This document shows positions 8,097 to 51,481 of a stretch of DNA of 64,000 nucleotides, one piece after another. Position numbers and translations under genes: made by a program. Under the pieces are notes generated by a model. The model did not search any database. It worked only from the letters and a program-made list of their open reading frames with translations, and was not told where the DNA came from. Location of the stretch: contig CBDDIJ010000002.1 of NCBI GenBank assembly GCA_965228855.1, positions 992,001 to 1,056,000 on the forward strand. Direction: 5' to 3'. Each line of letters opens with the position of its first letter. Within the stretch, counting starts at the first letter, position 1. Origin of the DNA: Candidatus Obscuribacterales bacterium. GTDB taxonomy: Bacteria > Cyanobacteriota > Vampirovibrionia > Obscuribacterales > Obscuribacteraceae.

Positions 8097-9707
8097 ATGA
8101 GGCTTTCACTCGAGTCCCTCGGACACATGAGAAGCCGATTCGCTTCGACCGTGATTGGCGCTGACCTGTCGCGGCTTTCGGAGGGCAATCGTCTTGCCGT
8201 CGCCAAACTCATCGAGGCGGCGCGGCTCATGGACGCTGTCTGCGACGAGCAGTATTGGAGCGGTTCTCGCGCCATGCGCTCATCGCTCGAAGCTGACGCC
8301 AGCGAGCTGGGTCAGTCGCGTCTGCAGTTTTTCCGCCTGAATGGCGGTCCCTGGTCGGCTCTCGACCACTACACACCTTTCGTTGAAGATGTTCCGGCGC
8401 GGCCGCCGCACGCCAACTTCTACCCGGAAGACATCACCGCAGCGGAGTTCGAAGCCTGGCTGAAGACCCTGGACGATGCCGAGCGCACCAGGGCAACCGG
8501 CTTTTTCCACGTCATTCGGCGCGACGAGAAGGGCAGTCTGAAGACCGTTCCGTTCTCGGAGGAGTATCGCGAGTTTCTGGAACCGGCGGCACAGCTTCTT
8601 CGCGAGGCTGCCGACCTGACCGATTCCGAGAGTCTGGCGAATTTCCTGCGCCTGCGCGCCGACGCTTTCCTCTCCAACGACTACGCTGCCAGCGACATCG
8701 CCTGGCTGCAGCTCGATTCGCCGATCGAGGTCTGCATTGGACCGTACGAGACCTATCTCGACGAGTTTCGTGGTGCCAAGGCGGCGTTCGAGGCGTACGT
8801 CGCGCTGCGCGATGACGAGAAGACCGACCTGCTCGCCAAGTTCAGCCGCTACATGCAGTTTATCGAAGACCGGCTGCCCATGCACAAGCGCTACCGGAAT
8901 CCGAATGTGGCTTCCGCTGCGCCGATTCGCGTGGTCAATCTGCTTCTCGGTGCCGGCAACGCCAATCACGGCGTGCAGACGGCTGCGTTCAACCTGCCCA
9001 ACGACGACGCTATCGTCGCCGTGCATGGTACGAAGCAGACGATGCTGCGCAATGTTCAGGAGGCGAAGTTCGCCCAGGTGCTGACGCCGATCGGCAAGGA
9101 GCTTCTGCATCCGAGCCATCAGGCGAATCTGTCGTTCGATGCGTTCTTCACCTTCATCCTCATGCACGAGCTGTGTCACGGCCTCGGCCCGCACGGTATC
9201 ACCGTGAAGGGGCGGAAAACGGCTGTGCGTCTCGAACTCAAGGAGACGTATTCCGCGATCGAGGAAGCGAAGGCGGACGTGTGCGGGCTGCTCGCGCTGC
9301 AGATGCTCATCGACGAAGGCGTCGTGGAGCCGAATCTGGCGGACGAGATGTATCACACGTTCGTCGCCGGCATTTTCCGTTCGATTCGCTTCGGCATCGG
9401 CGAGGCGCATGGCGCGAGCAATGTCATGCAGTTCAACTGGCTGCGTGACGCTCGTGCTGTCACCTTCGACACCAAGACGCAGACCTTCAAGGTCAACGTC
9501 AAGCGGGTCAAGGCGGCGCTCAAGGAATTCGCTGCCGTCATTCTGCGCATCGAAGCGCGTGGCGACTACAAGGGCGCGAAGGCGCTGCTGAAGCGCTACG
9601 CCGTCATGCGTCCCGCGACCAAGCGTGCTCTCGATCGGCTGGCTCACGTGCCGGTCGACATCGAGCCCGCGTACACCACGGCGGAGGAACTGACCGCCGC
9701 GAAGTAG
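8097..9707 (+). CDS. Peptidase M49 / dipeptidyl-peptidase III-like metallopeptidase (NUDT3-type HExxH)
   Basis: HELCHGLG, EEAKAD, AFNLPND, IGPYETY motifs; AAGGAG RBS. Confidence 0.88.
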   Translation: MRLSLESLGHMRSRFASTVIGADLSRLSEGNRLAVAKLIEAARLMDAVCDEQYWSGSRAMRSSLEADASELGQSRLQFFRLNGGPWSALDHYTPFVEDVPARPPHANFYPEDITAAEFEAWLKTLDDAERTRATGFFHVIRRDEKGSLKTVPFSEEYREFLEPAAQLLREAADLTDSESLANFLRLRADAFLSNDYAASDIAWLQLDSPIEVCIGPYETYLDEFRGAKAAFEAYVALRDDEKTDLLAKFSRYMQFIEDRLPMHKRYRNPNVASAAPIRVVNLLLGAGNANHGVQTAAFNLPNDDAIVAVHGTKQTMLRNVQEAKFAQVLTPIGKELLHPSHQANLSFDAFFTFILMHELCHGLGPHGITVKGRKTAVRLELKETYSAIEEAKADVCGLLALQMLIDEGVVEPNLADEMYHTFVAGIFRSIRFGIGEAHGASNVMQFNWLRDARAVTFDTKTQTFKVNVKRVKAALKEFAAVILRIEARGDYKGAKALLKRYAVMRPATKRALDRLAHVPVDIEPAYTTAEELTAAK

Positions 9708-9786: not shown

Positions 9787-9859
9787 CTCGGCGCGATGGC
9801 ACCAGAAATGGTGTCATCGCTGCCGAGTCTTCAGAAGGAACCTACTATCGAAGACAGGA
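9787..9859 (+). terminator. Terminal hairpin (9787-9827) plus box (9843-9859)
   Basis: ctcggc-gcgatggcacca GAAA tggtgtcatcgc-t-gccgag; TACTA-tcgaaga-CAGGA 15 nt later. Confidence 0.72.
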
Positions 9860-9937
9860 AAAGTGAACTTTGCAGATGCCGCAACAACGCGGGCTTTTGG
9901 GGGCTCTGAGTCTCTCGGGTATAGGTTTTCGGCGGTT

Positions 9938-10272
9938 ATTCCTACTGCGGCATTGCAGCGGCGATTCTTTGATACCGCGTCAGGAATGTGGATAATAGTC
10001 ATTCTCGATGCCGTATCTGGAACCGAGAGATTTCATGTCCCGAGCCGCATGGATCCGAAAGGCATTTTTTTCGGCGTGAAGAGCAGGCTTTGCGGCTCAT
10101 TAGGCTGGCTGTATGCGGCTCATTCGGTTGGCGGCATAGGAGCTGCGACTCTTTGATGCCGCGTCGGGAATGTGGATTTTAGCCATTCTCGATGCGGTAT
10201 GGGGAACCGAGAGATTTCATGTCCCGAGCCGCATGGAGACAAAGGTATTTTCGGCGTGAAGTAACAGGTTTT
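9938..10272 (-). repeat. Left array of PLD-HTH-1: two ~184-bp direct repeats carrying four 44-bp CGGYAT-N18-ATRCCG-type sites
   Basis: Sites at 9938, 10001, 10122, 10185; ggaaccgagagatttcatgtcccgagccgcatgga is duplicated exactly. Confidence 0.75.
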
Positions 10273-10488
10273 GTTCGTCCCGAGGCGAATGGATGACAGG
10301 GTGTTTTCACGAATGGATTTGAGAACGTCGAGCGCTTAGAGGGGTTGACACTTTATCCGTTGAATTCCGCAGTGAAAAGTTTTCGGTCTGACCATATCCT
10401 GGGATAGTGGATGGGAGGCATGTGACCGAAGCGCTTTGAGGCGCTGTTTTTTCCGGAGATTGGAGCATCGAAGTGAAGTGAGGACCGT

Positions 10489-11349
10489 ATGTTTGCTTCC
10501 CAAATAAAACCACCGACTGATGGACGTACCTCCCACACGGAGGCAACAATGTGGGACCCGTTCCTCGCGGACATGGACTCGGCGAAATTTCACATAGTCA
10601 TACATGTGCCATTTATCGCATTGGGTCGGATGCAGTTCTTCTGGCAGCGCTTCGAGCGACTCAGGAAACGCGGTGTAATGATCTGCGTTTTTCTTCGGGA
10701 GCCGGAGGTGTGGGACGGGCGAGATTTCCAGAGTGATCAGGGTTTCGAGGCTATCATTGCGAAGTTGCGAGAGCTTGGAGTTCACGTAACTCCGAAAAAG
10801 CTGATTCACGAAAAATTGGCCATCATTGATGGGCGGATTCTCTGGGACGGCTCGCTCAACTATCTTAGTCACAGGAATACGAGAGAGCGAGCGAATCGGT
10901 TTGCAAGTCGACAAGTAGTGAGGGAAGCCATGAATTTGCATGATATGAATGGTTGTAATCAATGTGATGATAATCGGAAGGCTAGTTCTGCCGGCGGCAC
11001 TGCTGAAGCACTTCTTGGTGGTTTGAGTGTGCATCGCAAGTTGGCGGGCGTATCGCAAGGCACCTTCGCAAAGTCTATAAAAACTAGCCAAGGCTGGGTT
11101 TCGCGTGTTGAAAGCGGAAGGCATGAGAGTGTTTCTGTCCGCACGCTTTGCGAATATTCGCTGGCGCTCGGTGTCCGACCGGTCTTAGTTCCTGACATTT
11201 TGATACCTGCCGTAACCCAGATGCTCGAGGAATACATTCACTCGATGTCCACCGACTCGCAGATTATCGAAAAGTCGCGAACCTTGACCAAACCTAAAAA
11301 AGTGACGGTTAGTGGCAAGACCAATGGCAAGGTGCAAGTCAAGACGTGA
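10489..11349 (+). CDS. PLD-like (single HKD) nuclease domain - CxxC - XRE-type HTH fusion protein (paralogue 1)
   Basis: HEKLAIIDGRILWDGSLN = HxKx4Dx6GSxN; CNQC; RKLAGVSQGTFAKSIKTSQGWVSRVESG. Confidence 0.82.
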   Translation: MFASQIKPPTDGRTSHTEATMWDPFLADMDSAKFHIVIHVPFIALGRMQFFWQRFERLRKRGVMICVFLREPEVWDGRDFQSDQGFEAIIAKLRELGVHVTPKKLIHEKLAIIDGRILWDGSLNYLSHRNTRERANRFASRQVVREAMNLHDMNGCNQCDDNRKASSAGGTAEALLGGLSVHRKLAGVSQGTFAKSIKTSQGWVSRVESGRHESVSVRTLCEYSLALGVRPVLVPDILIPAVTQMLEEYIHSMSTDSQIIEKSRTLTKPKKVTVSGKTNGKVQVKT

Positions 11350-11462
11350 GACACCGAACGTCCGCAATTGCGGTCAAGATTGAGCTCGAGAGCGACAGGA
11401 AGAGATCGAAAACGAGTATCTCAGCTAGGTCGTGGTCTAGTTCGAATTCGTGAGAATTGCGG

Positions 11463-11729
11463 GTCGCGGTATCAAAAATTTCTTCTGTTCATACCGTTAT
11501 CGGAATCCCCGCATTTTCATTCCGCTGGCGGAATTTGAATCAGTTTTGGCTTATGTCGCTCGGAGAAAGTGCAAAGCTGCAGAGTTGAGCATGATGAGTT
11601 TTTGATTTCAAATCTACATGCAGGTCACGGTATCAAACACTTCGTCAGCTATGCCGCATGAGGAATGACCCGTATGGGCATTCTCTTGGCGGTATCGATA
11701 TCCAAGCCAATCTATGCCGTGAGAGGAAT
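11463..11729 (+). repeat. Right array of PLD-HTH-1: four 43-44-bp sites, inverted relative to the left array
   Basis: Copies at 11463, 11525 (degenerate), 11624, 11686; gtcgcggtatcaaa..ataccg..ggaat aligns ungapped with the reverse complement of 9938-9981. Confidence 0.7.
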
Positions 11730-11863
11730 TTTGTTGATTTTGGATTTCGTTGATTTGTTGATTTGTTGATCTCTGATTTCGGAAATCCAAGTTTTGAAGC
11801 GCACTAAGCTCGGGTGTGGTCCTGTAAAGGGTTGTCGATGCTTGATTTGCTCGATTTCGCGGA

Positions 11864-11943
11864 TACGCTGGAATATAGTAGGAAAAATTTGGGAAAGTGA
11901 TGGGTGGAGCGAGCCAGCTGGAGAGCCGGTCACACCACCCATC
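11864..11943 (-). terminator. Terminal hairpin (11899-11943) plus box (11864-11880)
   Basis: gatgggtgg/ccacccatc stem; TACGC-tggaata-TAGTA 18 nt downstream. Confidence 0.72.
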
Positions 11944-11962: not shown

Positions 11963-12208
11963 CTACTTGCGCATATCCCGCACGTCCGGGTCGTGGAGAA
12001 ACTGCTTGCCGTCCTTGTCGAACGACCACCGGTTGCTGACCGCGCGGATAGTGGTGATTACGGAAGTATCGTCCTCACCCTGCATCACCAAGCCGAGCTG
12101 CTGACGAACCGTGCGACGATAGCAACGGTTGGCGAGCCGCTTGTCCTGCTTCTCGGACACGGCAGTGGTGTAGCCGCAGATAGGAGTCTTCTTGCGAGAA
12201 TTGCTCAT
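11963..12208 (-). CDS. Small basic hypothetical protein
   Basis: 81 aa, GAGG RBS, C/G-ending codons. Confidence 0.65.
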   Translation of the reverse strand: MSNSRKKTPICGYTTAVSEKQDKRLANRCYRRTVRQQLGLVMQGEDDTSVITTIRAVSNRWSFDKDGKQFLHDPDVRDMRK

Positions 12209-12374: not shown

Positions 12375-14042
12375 TTACTTGGTCTCGTCTTTCTTGTTCG
12401 CGTTCTGGAAACGCGCCAGAGAGCGGTGGCGCGAGTAGAACACGAAGAGCAGCGTTACCGCGCTCCAGACGACTGCCAGACGCGCGAAGGCTTCCCAGGG
12501 CAGCTCAATCATGAGCCGTCCGGAACCCAGGACGCCGAGCGCAGCGACGACGATCCAGAAGATGCCGCTTCGAAATTCGACGCGGTTTTTCCAGTTGGTT
12601 TCGCGCACGGTTTTGACCAGGACCGTGAGTGAGATGGTGATGAACGCGGTCATCGTTCCGATGTTCGTCAGGTGCATGAGTTCGCCGACCGCGAGCAGTC
12701 CGGTCAGCAGGGCAACGCCGCCGCCGACCATGAGCGTCGCGAGCACGGGGACCTGGCGCTTTTCGCTGACCTTCTCGAATGCCTCGGGAAGGAGCTTGTG
12801 CTGCGCCATGTTGTACACCAGGCGAGTAGTGGAATAGGCGCTGGCGAGCAGCACCGAGATGAGCGCAACGGTTGAGCCGAGCGCGACCCAGACGACCGCC
12901 GATTTGTAGCCCAGGATTTCGAGCGCCTGAGCCATGGGAGCCGCCTCTTCATGCCCTCCTACACCGATTTGCGTGTACGGCACGGCAGCGCTGAGAAAGT
13001 ATGCCGCCACGATGTACATGACGGTCACCGCGACGAGTCCGATGAGCATGCCGACGGGCACATTGCGGCGCGCGTTCTTGGTTTCGCCCGCGGTCATGGT
13101 CGCGAGATCGAGACCGACAAATGCGAAGAATGCGATCGAAGCTCCGGCGAGTGAGCCGGGAAGATGCGCGGGAACGGGTAACGCAAGGTTCGCGGGATCG
13201 TAGTGCTGGGCGAGCAGGAAGACGATGAACGTGATCACGATCAACTTCGTGATTGTGAAAACGTTCGTGAGGAAAGCCGTTTCCTTAATGCCGCGCATGA
13301 GGATGACGGTGATGAGACCGACAACGCCCATGGACAGAAGGTTGATGGACGGCAGTGCGGCCGCAAAACCGATTACGGAAATCAAACCGAAAACGCCGGC
13401 CGCACCGCCCGCGGTTAGGCTAGCGAAGGCAAACCGCTTCTTCTGCGGTTCGAAAGACGTGCGGTTTCTCAGACCGAAGCGGATGAGAAGAGTACTGGTG
13501 ATACCACCGATGATGGCAAGACCCAGTTGACCCCACTGAACTACTTCGGGCGTTTTCGTAATCACATCGGGCAGATGAAGACCGAACGCGATGCGCAGGA
13601 TCATCTTGATGTGGTCCGCCTGGGACACAGCTACAGCAGCTGTGCCGCCGAGGCACTCGAGCATGACGTCGAAGAACATGAGGAATCCGACGAACTGCCC
13701 GAGAACAAGACATGCATAGCTGCCGGTCGAGCCGCTGCGCGACGTGATGCTCGCCATCTTTGCGAGACAGAGAGCCGCCGGCGCACAGATGAGCCCCGCC
13801 CAGAGGAAGGAGACCCAACCGAAAGGACCGGCGTAGTCGCGCGCAATGATACCAGGGGTGGTGAGGATACCGGCGCCGACTGCCTGCGTGATCGTGAAGA
13901 GAACCACCGAAATGAGACCGAGCTGACGGTTGAGTTTGTCCTGCCCGTGCGCCTCTTCGATGTTTATGGTGAGCTTGGCGTCGTGTTTGACACCCGCCAA
14001 CCATTGCCGAACGGATGATAGATTCATCTTCGTTGTCTCCAA
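12375..14042 (-). CDS. APC-superfamily amino acid permease (paralogue 1)
   Basis: VGAGIL, FFAFVGLD, AGETKNARRNVP, many TM segments; start TTG 14042 or ATG 14027. Confidence 0.9.
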   Translation of the reverse strand: METTKMNLSSVRQWLAGVKHDAKLTINIEEAHGQDKLNRQLGLISVVLFTITQAVGAGILTTPGIIARDYAGPFGWVSFLWAGLICAPAALCLAKMASITSRSGSTGSYACLVLGQFVGFLMFFDVMLECLGGTAAVAVSQADHIKMILRIAFGLHLPDVITKTPEVVQWGQLGLAIIGGITSTLLIRFGLRNRTSFEPQKKRFAFASLTAGGAAGVFGLISVIGFAAALPSINLLSMGVVGLITVILMRGIKETAFLTNVFTITKLIVITFIVFLLAQHYDPANLALPVPAHLPGSLAGASIAFFAFVGLDLATMTAGETKNARRNVPVGMLIGLVAVTVMYIVAAYFLSAAVPYTQIGVGGHEEAAPMAQALEILGYKSAVVWVALGSTVALISVLLASAYSTTRLVYNMAQHKLLPEAFEKVSEKRQVPVLATLMVGGGVALLTGLLAVGELMHLTNIGTMTAFITISLTVLVKTVRETNWKNRVEFRSGIFWIVVAALGVLGSGRLMIELPWEAFARLAVVWSAVTLLFVFYSRHRSLARFQNANKKDETK

Positions 14043-14602
14043 AGTTTATTCTCCAGTCGAATGCGATTGCTCGACTGGTCCCCAATCGCTTCGCGATGGA
14101 GATGATTAAGAGCCGCGGCGAACCTTCGGGTTTGAAGCCGTTGAGCGCGAGCGGATTAAGCGAGGAGTTAACTTTCCACTGAATGGAATGACGCACTGAT
14201 ATTTCGTTGTGACAGAGACAAATTTTTCGCGAACGAAACACCTTGTGCGAAGAAAACAGCAGACGCGTAAAACTAGGAAAGAAATCCACTTTGAATCAAG
14301 AAATGTTCTTTGGATATTTCTTGGTTTTTATTCAGCTAAGGTCTCCCCGGTGGAAAGATCTTGTTTCGAGACAAACTGCGAGGGCGAACTGCGAGCTTTG
14401 TCAGAGCTTGCCCGGCTTAGGATTTGACCGGCCCGGGGACGGCTTACCTGGATGACAAGTGGTCGCGCTAGTCTAGCGGAAGGCGAGTTTGGCGGCGCTG
14501 GCTGTGTGCTTACGAGCTGCTGTTTTGGAGTTACGGGTGTGGCGTCGGGGTGCGACGGCGTGAGCTGAGGTGTGAGCTGGGGTGTGGAGGTGTGAGTCGT
14601 TC

Positions 14603-14671
14603 AACCATCGGATATAGTAAAAGTGCAATGAGGCAAGAACACCGGAAACCCTATGGTTCCCGGCGTTCTTG
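14603..14671 (-). terminator. Terminal hairpin (14634-14671) plus box (14603-14619)
   Basis: caagaacaccggaaacc/ggttcccggcgttcttg stem; AACCA-tcggata-TAGTA 14 nt downstream. Confidence 0.72.
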
Positions 14672-14712
14672 TTCAGCCCGTACTGACACCGCCTCGTTCA
14701 AGCTAGACCGGT

Positions 14713-14766
14713 CTGTCAATGAGACAGCGACGGAATTTGCTAAATCCGTCGCTCTGGGATTGACAG
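14713..14766. repeat. 54-bp symmetric core (variant)
   Basis: ctgtcaat-N6-gcgacg-gaatttgctaaatc-cgtcgc-N6-attgacag; closely similar to 57626-57679. Confidence 0.7.
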
Positions 14767-14831
14767 GGCGAAGTTTTGGACCGGTGACGGCTCGCAGTGG
14801 TTGCTCGGGTCGGAGCTCTGCTTGGGCTAGT

Positions 14832-16559
14832 TCACTGCTTGGGCTGTTCCTGCGTGGGTTGTTCCTCCTTGTGCAGCTTGCGGCGAGCGAGGCTGTGGTG
14901 CCGCGAGTAGGTAACGAAGAGAACGACGACGGCGGACCAGACGGCGACGAGCCGTGCGAATGACTCCCAGGGGAGCTCCATCATCAGGCGCGCCGGTCCG
15001 AGGATGCCGAGCGTCGCTACGACCACCCAGAACGAGCCCTTTAGTGCGTTTCGGCGCGTCTTCCAGTCGGTTTCCTTCACGGTCAAAACGAGCACCGTCA
15101 GGGAGATGGTGATAAACGCGGTCATGGTGCCGATGTTCGTCAGGTGCATCAACTCACCCACCGCCATCAAGCCGGTGAGCAGCGAGATGAAACCGCCCAC
15201 GACTAACGTCGCGAGAACTGGCACCTGGCGTTTGCTCGACACTTGCTCGAACGCGCTCGGCATGAGCCCGTGTTGGGCCATATTGAACAGCAGTCGGGTG
15301 GTCGCGTAGGCGCTGGCCAGCACCACGGAAACGAGCGCCACTGTCGACCCCAGCGCAACCCAGATAGCCGCCGATTTGTAGCCCAACAGCTCCAGTCCTT
15401 GAACCATGGGTGCCGCCTCGCCCCCGTGACCGTGCGCTGCGATCTTGGTGAACGGCACAGCTCCCGCGTACGCGAAGGCTGCGATGAAATACAGTGCCGT
15501 GACGCAGACCAGCCCGATCAGCATGCCGAGCGGAACGTTGCGTTTCGCGTTCTTCACTTCGCCTGCAGTTGTGGTTGCCAGGTCGAGTCCGACGAAGGCG
15601 AAGAACGCCACGGACGCGCCGGCAAGCGAACCCGGCAGTTTGTCCGGAACGGGAATCGCCAGGTTCGCCCAGTCGAAGTGGCGAGCGAAGAAGACGATGA
15701 TTACTGCCAGAACGCACAGCTTCGTGATGGTGAAGATGTTCGTCAGAATCGCTGTTTCCTTCACGCCACGAAGCAGAACGCCGGTGATGAGCAGCACTAC
15801 GCCCATTGAGAGCAGGTTGATGGATGGCAGATCGGCGGCGAACTTGAGCGCGAACAGGAAGCAAGCCACGCTCGTGAAGAGCACGAGAGATAGGGAGAGC
15901 ATCGGCAGGAGGCGAGCCTGAAAGTTGCGGGCCGGTAAGTTGCGGGCCGGTAAGTGGTGGACTTCCTTCAGTCGTCTCGAACCGTACGACCAGAAGAACC
16001 AGGCTGCGATGCCGGATGCCAGCGCGCAACTCAGTGCTTTCCAGTTCACCACCTCTGGTGTCGTGGTGAGGAATTCGTTGAGCTTCCAGCTCTGTCCGAA
16101 CCATTCCTCGCCGACGAGCCGGATGATCAGCTTGATGTGGTCCGCCTGGGAGACCGCCACGGCAGCGGTTCCACCGATGCATTCCATCATAACGTCGACG
16201 AACATCAGGAGTCCGGGCAGTTGTCCGAGTACGAGGCACGCGTAGCTGCCGGTGCTTCCGCTCTTCGCCGTTCTGCTTGCCATGAATGCGAGGCACAGAG
16301 CCGGACACAGGCAAATCATGCCGGCTTGAACGAAGCTGAGCCAGGCATTGGGTCCGGCATAGTCGCGGGCGATGATACCGGGGGTGGTGAGAATTCCGGA
16401 ACCAACCGCCGACGTGATGGTAAACAGGATCACCGAGAAGAGTCCCATCTGGCGCATGAGCTTGTCGCCGGCTGCGCCGTGGGCTTCCTCGATGTCGATT
16501 TTCTGAGTGGCGTCGTGAACCACGCCGCCCAGCCAATTGCGGATGTTTGAAAAACCCAT
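14832..16559 (-). CDS. APC-superfamily amino acid permease (paralogue 2)
   Basis: Long identical blocks with 12375..14042 (e.g. GELMHLTNIGTMTAFITISLTVLV). Confidence 0.9.
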   Translation of the reverse strand: MGFSNIRNWLGGVVHDATQKIDIEEAHGAAGDKLMRQMGLFSVILFTITSAVGSGILTTPGIIARDYAGPNAWLSFVQAGMICLCPALCLAFMASRTAKSGSTGSYACLVLGQLPGLLMFVDVMMECIGGTAAVAVSQADHIKLIIRLVGEEWFGQSWKLNEFLTTTPEVVNWKALSCALASGIAAWFFWSYGSRRLKEVHHLPARNLPARNFQARLLPMLSLSLVLFTSVACFLFALKFAADLPSINLLSMGVVLLITGVLLRGVKETAILTNIFTITKLCVLAVIIVFFARHFDWANLAIPVPDKLPGSLAGASVAFFAFVGLDLATTTAGEVKNAKRNVPLGMLIGLVCVTALYFIAAFAYAGAVPFTKIAAHGHGGEAAPMVQGLELLGYKSAAIWVALGSTVALVSVVLASAYATTRLLFNMAQHGLMPSAFEQVSSKRQVPVLATLVVGGFISLLTGLMAVGELMHLTNIGTMTAFITISLTVLVLTVKETDWKTRRNALKGSFWVVVATLGILGPARLMMELPWESFARLVAVWSAVVVLFVTYSRHHSLARRKLHKEEQPTQEQPKQ

Positions 16560-28029: not shown

Positions 28030-28062
28030 GCTTATCCTTTCTGAATGTGCTGGAGAGAAGAG

Positions 28063-28134
28063 CACGGTCGGAGGGATTCGAACCCCCACTGCATGGTTTT
28101 GGAGACCAGCAGGCTACCGTTACAACACGACCGT
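28063..28134 (-). tRNA. tRNA-Trp(CCA), atypical D-stem, 3' CCA not encoded
   Basis: ACGGTCG/CGACCGT acceptor stem, CT-CCA-AA anticodon loop, GGGGG-TTCGAAT-CCCTC T-arm, discriminator G. Confidence 0.85.
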
Positions 28135-50617: not shown

Positions 50618-51481
50618 TTATTTGACTATCGTTGGATTTGAGATCGGCGCGATGATTATGCTAGAAGTTTCCCGCCCAGATTTCTTTGAACGGCTCGGCG
50701 TCCTCTTTTGCGGAAGAGGGTTCAGTGTCGGAACCTCATCCCAGTAGCTTCGCGTGATGTTTAGAACTGCTGCAGCCGTGTCCTCAGGAACTACTGCAAG
50801 CTTTAGATCGAGAGCTTTGAAGACACTCAAGAATGCGTCCATGTGACAGTTTTTTCCTCTCTCCATAGCTCCAATGGTTTGATGCGGCACTCCGGAAAGC
50901 CGTTCTAGGTCGACTTGCGAGAGATTGAGGCGAACGCGCTGCTTCCTAAGCAGCACGCCAAATTGTGTCATGGGAGCATTGACGCTGCTGTTGCCCCAGA
51001 GTTCGTTGTTTTGTTTCATACATTCCTCACAGTAATCTAGATCGAATTTTTCACAAGCTTCCTCGATTTCAGCAGGGTCTTCGGTTCGTCGCATGCACTC
51101 AGAAGTGTTGAAATGGCTAAAAACGTTCATGCTCCCGAAGTACATGACGCGTTTGTCGATGAGCACGAACTTGTGGTGAAACTTACGTGCATTGAGGTGA
51201 AACCTCCATGACCTCAGAATGTCCAGGGACGTTGTGCGGTTTTGTGCGTAGTCGGACTTCAAATCGTCTGGGAGCGCTTCTTCCATTGCGCCAACGGATT
51301 GTGTCGTTAGGCACGATGCCACCCCTCTGTCTTTGAGAGAACTGAATAGTCGAGAACCATCGGCGAGCCGCCTCGGATGCAGAAATGGGCTGTGGATAAT
51401 CAATCGAGATCTAACGCCAGGTAGGTCTGCTTTGAACGCGGACCAGAATTCTGCCGAGTTTAGAAGTTCGGCTGTGCGCAT
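50618..51481 (-). CDS. PLD-like (single HKD) nuclease domain - CxxC - XRE-type HTH fusion protein (paralogue 2)
   Basis: HHKFVLIDKRVMYFGSMN; CEEC; RVRLNLSQVDLERLSGVPHQTIGAMERG. Confidence 0.82.
   Translation of the reverse strand: MRTAELLNSAEFWSAFKADLPGVRSRLIIHSPFLHPRRLADGSRLFSSLKDRGVASCLTTQSVGAMEEALPDDLKSDYAQNRTTSLDILRSWRFHLNARKFHHKFVLIDKRVMYFGSMNVFSHFNTSECMRRTEDPAEIEEACEKFDLDYCEECMKQNNELWGNSSVNAPMTQFGVLLRKQRVRLNLSQVDLERLSGVPHQTIGAMERGKNCHMDAFLSVFKALDLKLAVVPEDTAAAVLNITRSYWDEVPTLNPLPQKRTPSRSKKSGRETSSIIIAPISNPTIVK

Follow-up and report, generated by a model that had tools for sequence, protein, structure and literature searches.

What is a lone nuclease-like gene doing between two convergent gene ends, enclosed by inverted repeat arrays and, outside these, by a pair of boxes? 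A preliminary description of this locus, which lies in a 64,000-nucleotide stretch of DNA (the window), had read box, array, gene, inverted array and box as one symmetric unit, either a regulatory module or an autonomous, possibly PLD-based mobile element. We analysed the gene (u1), its four paralogues in the same genome (u2 to u5; genome G000) and the same locus in close relatives, namely the sister genome G007, which is 91% complete and 97% identical to the window in the flanks of the locus, and assembled contigs from the sequencing runs X5, X9, X12 and X15, the last two coming from two studies.

The u1 protein and its operators

The intact HxKx4Dx6GSxN motif, the CxxC and the XRE HTH ascribed to this gene were all confirmed in an ORF at 10489-11349, and it does lie alone between convergent ends, those of an M49-peptidase gene (ending at 9707) and of an 81-aa gene (ending at 11963).

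10489..11349, plus strand: u1 gene, 286 aa, with a single-HKD PLD domain, a likely zinc site and an XRE/HipB-like HTH with dimerisation tail
10807..10860, plus strand: HxKx4Dx6GSxN catalytic motif (H107-N124)
11032..11187, plus strand: XRE HTH (residues 182-233, Pfam)

Pfam matches above cut-off cover residues 27-125 (PLDc_2) and 182-233 (HTH_31), and an alternative start at M21 (10549) is possible. The predicted structure (pLDDT 90.8) has Zucchini, FAM83 and Nuc as its nearest folds, and u1 combines the two marks of a single-HKD PLD protein, the catalytic motif and the PLD fold. No HUH/Y1 transposase was found in u1, either among its Pfam domains or by fold comparison, and a promoter scan gave a signal at chance level. 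The HxKx4D motif is conserved in 150 of 152 relatives, as are C66 (150), H99 (152) and the two cysteines of the CxxC, C156 (147) and C159 (144); judging from this conservation, C66, H99, C156 and C159 are likely to form a four-ligand zinc site, which is more than the CxxC alone. A predicted u1 homodimer scored 0.61 against 0.00 for the best control (runs agreeing to 96%, pLDDT 79), a mark reached by 20 of 30 solved pairs and by 1 of 23 single chains, although the score may reflect resemblance to solved HTH dimers and the residues not named are uncertain. The confident contacts lie mainly in residues 166-182 and 210-252, in the HTH and C-terminal part, and the model, built without DNA, names no confident HKD-HKD contact. 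Hence, u1 is predicted to dimerise through its HTH.

The repeats that accompany u1 (family B, 16-bp operators in rows of four) were defined by an iterated profile, which led to a 50-bp palindrome, ATTCC-N4-GCGGYAT-N18-ATRCCGC-N4-GGAAT. There are 29 such sites in the genome, 28 of them intergenic, and none in the reversed genome, whereas profiles of other lengths (44 to 57) gave at most seven matches each. Each half of the site is again a palindrome, of 16 bp, and the 50-bp sites have twins 62-63 bp away, so that a row comprises four operators at 0, 34, 62/63 and 96/97 bp. All eight sites noted previously were recovered where they had been placed, with the 62-63 bp pairing, the right-hand ones beginning 6 bp earlier as full 50-bp palindromes; the length of 44 bp had to be abandoned in favour of 50 bp and two 16-bp operators, and the proposed CGGYAT-N18-ATRCCG core is perfect in only four of the eight.

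9938..10050, plus strand: left row 1, operators at 9938, 9972, 10001 and 10035, starting 96 bp from the left box
10122..10234, plus strand: left row 2, which repeats row 1 in tandem (184 bp, 85-89% identity)
11457..11568, minus strand: right row 1, operators at 11457, 11491, 11519 and 11553
11618..11729, minus strand: right row 2, operators at 11618, 11651, 11680 and 11714

The 50-bp operator-pair pattern has seven matches in the window, all within 9938-11729, against 0.01 expected from 100 shuffles. Left and right rows have only operator bases in common, and the variant outer half-site faces the gene in the three distinct rows tested and in the left duplicate, which agrees with the inversion of the right arrays described before. 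Besides the four rows flanking u1, 12 lie elsewhere in all intergenic orientations, and a 13th dispersed row is degraded in G000 and intact in G007; such an arrangement, with rows to the left and right of the gene and in every orientation, suits a purely regulatory module poorly. Because seven tests detected no hairpin covariation at free positions, the B sites look like protein-binding operators on duplex DNA rather than copied hairpins, and their interpretation as RNA or ssDNA hairpins was ruled out, there being no Rfam match either. The sites appear to resemble the HipB operator. Recent copying among rows was likewise rejected, as the free positions of 15 B rows bear no trace of common descent, the best pair agreeing at 32/69 against a null maximum of 33. 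A search of the B arms for a private phased motif found none, the best 5-mer occurring in 5 of 24 arms where the null gave 3-5. Among 101 genomes searched for the twin pattern with three mismatches, G000 had 10 matches and G007 six, 95 had none, and the remaining four had one or two each, with the outer half-sites missing.

A cassette nested in a family A element

The boxes belong with a second set of repeats, family A, which consists of 210 palindromes of 54 bp with CTACTAT boxes mostly 85 or 95-98 bp away. CTACTAT occurs 623 times in the genome (361 intergenic), and 239 of the 420 A arms exceed the threshold of 12 bits, compared to one of 600 control arms.

9842..9889, plus strand: left A box and arm (core 9842-9848, 13.3 bits), kept in the cassette-less allele
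9876..9882, plus strand: perfect B half-site standing alone in the retained arm, 62 bp ahead of the first operator and 7 bp short of the junction
9890..11782, no strand: cassette of 1,893 bp, in whose place other haplotypes have 99 bp with an A palindrome
11730..11782, no strand: T-rich microrepeat, filling the slot that the A palindrome has in the empty allele
11783..11881, minus strand: right A arm and box (core 11875-11881, 37.2 bits), kept in the cassette-less allele

Both boxes of the symmetric arrangement are present (9842, and 11881 on the minus strand), but as ends of a u1 unit they were rejected. The empty allele of G007 retains both boxes, along with 48 bp of the arm on the left and 99 bp of that on the right, where a single box had been expected, and around the dispersed B rows a box reaches 12 bits in just one of 24 arms, next to which lies an A palindrome. 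The boxes are part of family A and not of the u1 cassette, which is nested in an A element. The box was also considered as a -10 promoter element and dismissed, since no -35 signal precedes it, conservation is found downstream and the boxes come after gene ends.

In G007, about 99 bp with one A palindrome replace 9890-11782. The X12 and X15 contigs have the same joint (9889-11783, with 99 letters between), X9 yielded both alleles, and X5 carries a cassette with one left row. Filled and empty alleles therefore occur at one site, as for a homing endonuclease, and the presence or absence of gene and arrays among close relatives upholds the mobility suggested earlier, with one u1 insertion locus known. 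The cassette reaches 48 and 53 bp past its outermost operators, no target duplication was seen at its junctions, and the distance from box to first operator is 96 bp in both alleles. The A allele looks the older one, because 5 of 30 bases are different between its interiors in X9 and G007. The microrepeat at 11730-11782 might conceivably be a remnant of the A palindrome, as two short A-centre words recur in it, with an A score far below threshold. The half-site at 9876-9882 is a candidate target, picked post hoc; a perfect half-site of this kind is found in 10 of the 420 A arms, with about 0.015 expected within 60 bp, X5 has an altered one, with a change at 9881, and the empty allele contains one B half-site only and no full operator pair.

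We then compared the X5 locus with the window. Since 39 of the 51 flank differences listed carry the G007 allele, the X5 background is sister-type, whereas its cassette is about 99% identical to that of the window (some 19-21 differences per 1,700 bases, with five silent changes among the seven listed in the u1 gene), a closeness reached by only 3 of 223 G000/G007 blocks of 1.7 kb. The arms differ at 12/147 positions compared to 12/838 in cassette non-coding DNA (p=4e-5), which may itself be constrained, and coding DNA at 17/708 compared to 8/815 (p=0.04), local flank divergence in coding DNA being only 2-4%. Hypermutable arms as the source of this contrast were rejected, because A arms are neutral (11.6% divergence, fourfold sites 12.6%, A cores 4.2%), and no raised mutation was seen at the A palindrome centre. 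Because X5, the one cassette-bearing comparator (assembled contigs), has sister-type flanks yet a near-identical cassette, the cassette is likely to have moved laterally between strains. On the left, the last of the listed X5 differences lies 5 bp before the junction; beyond the right junction, a change private to X5 comes at 7 bp and G007-type alleles resume at 32 bp. Read from these positions, flank exchange is very short, whichever the direction of movement.

Further observations concern the surroundings and family A at large. The window holds ten A palindromes (5427, 14713, 22437, 26834, 39240, 39449, 39657, 57626, 62991 and 63150), two tandem amino-acid-permease-like paralogues, so labelled from sequence (12375-16559, minus strand), and a tRNA-Trp gene (28062-28134, minus strand). 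Over the same 400 kb, G007 has 77 A palindromes and G000 has 55. A 321-aa transposase-like gene, presumably IS110-like, occupies the centre of an A palindrome at G000:C2:987643-988908, where G007 is empty, and similar genes lie at box pairs C2:774560, C2:858399 and C5:1461298. Units of box, A palindrome, ordinary genes, A palindrome and box, possibly composite carriers, were found at G000:C2:157475, 641316, 731817 and 945810. In more distant genus members (L035, L037), a box-like word directly follows the terminator of the 81-aa gene, with different upstream neighbours.

Dispersed rows and the u1 family

No u1 match was found in the 91% complete genome of G007, and the dispersed B rows have fared unevenly there: seven are intact, two absent, three partial and one, row 360840, had no orthologue that we could find. 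Of 12 orthologous loci in G007, 5 have lost their B row in full or in part, compared to 1 of 49 A sites (those passing the flank filter; 55 in the main range; p=7e-4). Two of the partial alleles break inside the N18 spacer and one at the linker, with microhomology. A clean empty site with target duplication was seen at no B row, these three G007 alleles being partial deletions, and row 948810 was rejected as such a site because its G007 allele is a deletion that takes away a gene end present in outgroups. Next to 5 of 12 rows there are tandem microrepeats, compared to 19 of 1316 control regions and, for family A, 6 of 210 sites. Another B row is present in G007 and missing from G000 (L143:9787-9898, G007:C5; 187 bp against 11 bp). 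In one orthologous B row (G000:C2:2348451 and L152:12260-12372), whose flanks are 95-96% identical, stretches of the free positions have been replaced and the operator geometry is kept. Because no young row copies exist, the rows may stem either from an old burst followed by selection or from rewriting of their spacers, the latter being suggested by one locus.

The five paralogues lie on one contig at 25-31% identity, each in its own island with different repeats, and besides u1 one more lies within the window.

50618..51454, minus strand: paralogue u5, accompanied by distinct operator pairs of its own with a spacing of 33 bp

No B operators were found near u2, u3 or u4, and one weak operator near u5. 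As a check, it had been suggested to see whether paralogues are flanked by arrays and boxes; the paralogues do have arrays of their own, while boxes are wanting at the dispersed B rows. The HTH had been proposed to bind the arrays or boxes; the paralogues' own arrays, and the presence or absence of gene and arrays together, support the arrays, the boxes being those of family A. u2 (G000:C2:917915-918772) has lost the HKD motif and has a recognition helix almost as in u1, with no adjoining B operators; like u1, it is absent from the orthologous G007 site, where two A palindromes surround another gene. u4 is present in both genomes and bracketed by family A. An HTH-only relative of the C-terminal half (98 aa) lies at G000:C5:1613629-1613847.

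The wider family is patchy, occurring in 29 of 103 family genomes at E 1e-30, and comprises 401 clusters at 50% identity (E 1e-30). Of 20 loci with a match, 4 encode full-length relatives with a named record, all from Ca. Obscuribacterales, to which the host presumably belongs as well; at the remaining 16 only the PLD part is matched. The closest homologues are P0002-P0004. Recognition helices show 141 different signatures among 152 proteins, and in a hand-made table of 20 loci related helices adjoin related operators, the pairing for u1 itself coming from one genome. In a blind scan, operator pairs 32-34 bp apart gave 23 locus-counts in 43 family loci, which are kin and not independent, compared to two in shuffles; the best matches for u1 itself were its 28-bp inner pair. 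Two further members (L027, L112) have arrays with the same 62-bp period (33+29) and different sequences. Of the 152 relatives, 13 (P0005, P0007, P0008, P0010 and nine more) have a second match to the HTH part, a fused HTH pair, and none has two PLD domains. Metagenome scans yielded no close homologues of u1, or only relatives at 27-38%, no u1-type matches appeared on the viral contigs and plasmids scanned, and an ESM Atlas search gave only HTH leads scoring below 0.9. A methyltransferase motif scan of long ORFs at 42 loci found none apart from one unrelated match.

Candidate mechanisms and known systems

We proposed u1 as a site-specific nuclease because single-HKD nucleases need two chains to form one site (PMC2853115; PMC2094064) and an engineered BmrI-C.BclI PLD-XRE fusion cuts next to its operator (PMC2094064). 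The account towards which we lean, with some reserve, is that a nuclease cassette replaced an A palindrome and spread between strains, with spacing-gated, site-specific cutting by u1. The HTH would read the B operators and bind the 16-bp sites as dimers. Given a stable dimer via the HTH, the active site would form between two dimers, so that two DNA-bound dimers 34 bp apart would join their single-HKD domains into one site, which would explain the conserved spacing across unrelated operators and the breaks in spacers. Cutting in or beside rows may then lead to the deletions and microduplications at the dispersed rows, which would be old non-autonomous sites of u1. The cassette would enter empty alleles by break-driven conversion or by cut-and-join with very short flank exchange, the recipient being cut most likely by u1 near the lone B half-site of the left arm, or else by the A-specific u4. 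It is also possible, if doubtful, that this is a PLD-based mobile element, in which HTH dimers on the rows assemble the active site, a phosphohistidine intermediate cuts and rejoins about 50 bp outside, and the element swaps into the repeats of rival paralogues, so that specificities compete for intergenic sites.

Four other explanations were weighed. The protein could have been domesticated, serving the host by binding the rows, be it in chromosome organisation, DNA repair or regulation, while its gene moves by homologous recombination only. Operators and geometry have been preserved although the free positions are randomised, which implies long selection; G007 still has 7 of the 12 orthologous rows, plasmids and viral contigs gave no match, and RAYTs offer a precedent (PMC5581495). 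We nevertheless consider domestication unlikely, since the gene is missing from several close haplotypes, the family is as patchy as described, specificity is extremely diverse, the rows are unstable and the exchange is tight to the junctions. Somewhat more improbable is that u1 and its operators are passengers, cargo of the A element spread by u4 breaks at A palindromes (trans homing, known in T4; PMC2790892), with u1 binding rows without driving movement. In favour, the cassette fits exactly into A arms, its first operator has the 96-bp distance to the box that is seen in the A allele, and its right junction coincides with the A palindrome's end; A boxes enclose other genes too, and u4 is in both genomes. 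However, in 13 of 15 long box pairs one A palindrome or more has survived beside other cargo, whereas none has at u1, and the 13 dispersed rows and their instability would be left without explanation.

A fused toxin-antitoxin, addiction or defence module, with a toxic PLD nuclease curbed by autoregulation or operator titration, appears very unlikely to us. The HTH resembles HipB, HigA and C-protein, and the PLD domain resembles Mokosh MkoC/MkoB and DrmC, but these matches are single-domain and, where scores are given, far below cut-offs; moreover, rows are found on the downstream side of the gene too and throughout the genome, and no methyltransferase motif turned up in the long ORFs of the 42 loci apart from the unrelated match. 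The box-ended autonomous element of the preliminary description, to which the symmetry from box to box had pointed, can hardly be maintained with an empty allele that keeps both boxes and arms and with B rows elsewhere without boxes, although the layout does fit u4 and family A.

If the spacing-gated mechanism is true, the u1 family would be a library of compact nucleases in which the HTH sets specificity and operator spacing gates activity. Its matched filled and empty alleles with base-exact junctions make the mechanism of spread directly testable, and the locus bears on the long-standing question of how dispersed extragenic palindromes arise and persist. We know of no PLD-family enzyme serving as the engine of a mobile element or as a homing nuclease, and our literature search for either found none, though other papers could describe the family.

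Among known systems, REPtrons (RAYT/TnpA-REP with REP, BIME, REPIN) come close, as they also consist of a single gene with its own inverted palindromes, which are dispersed as well (PMC8266576; PMC5581495); enzyme and repeat appear to co-vary in REPtrons and in the u1 family alike. Cognate palindromes, both flanking and dispersed, are thus common to both, whereas u1 is an HKD nuclease with an XRE HTH and not a HUH/Y1 enzyme, its operators behave as dsDNA sites without GTAG and not as near-identical ssDNA hairpins, B copies are not look-alikes, and one genome holds five specificities. Furthermore, the u1 gene itself appears mobile, unlike tnpA-REP, for which PMC8266576 reports no evidence of mobility. 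With free-standing homing endonucleases, u1 shares a gene present or absent at one site and an empty allele that was apparently converted (PMC2790892; PMC6083498), but PLD is not among the families listed for them, and flank exchange is under about 32 bp compared to up to 2 kb in T4 (PMC2790892), with the cassette's own rows around the gene and genome-wide. Insertion sequences differ in that here the boxes stay in the empty allele, there is no duplication and paralogues are only 25-31% identical. BfiI/BmrI, Nuc and Zucchini have one HKD per chain, like u1, which differs from them in being a natural fusion with a likely CHCC zinc site, a stable dimer predicted via the HTH, no methyltransferase and many sites in its own genome. 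Type IIS restriction-modification has an adjacent methyltransferase, of which the motif scan found none at u1. HipB/HigA/MqsA antitoxins and C proteins also place XRE HTH dimers on short paired palindromes, whereas u1 carries a fused intact nuclease, has no toxin or R-M partner, and has operators on both sides and dispersed; neither the separate toxin gene nor the above-cut-off model of a type II toxin-antitoxin system was found. In summary, the u1 system is like a REPtron crossed with a homing nuclease, yet it belongs to neither class, nor to insertion sequences, restriction-modification or toxin-antitoxin systems.
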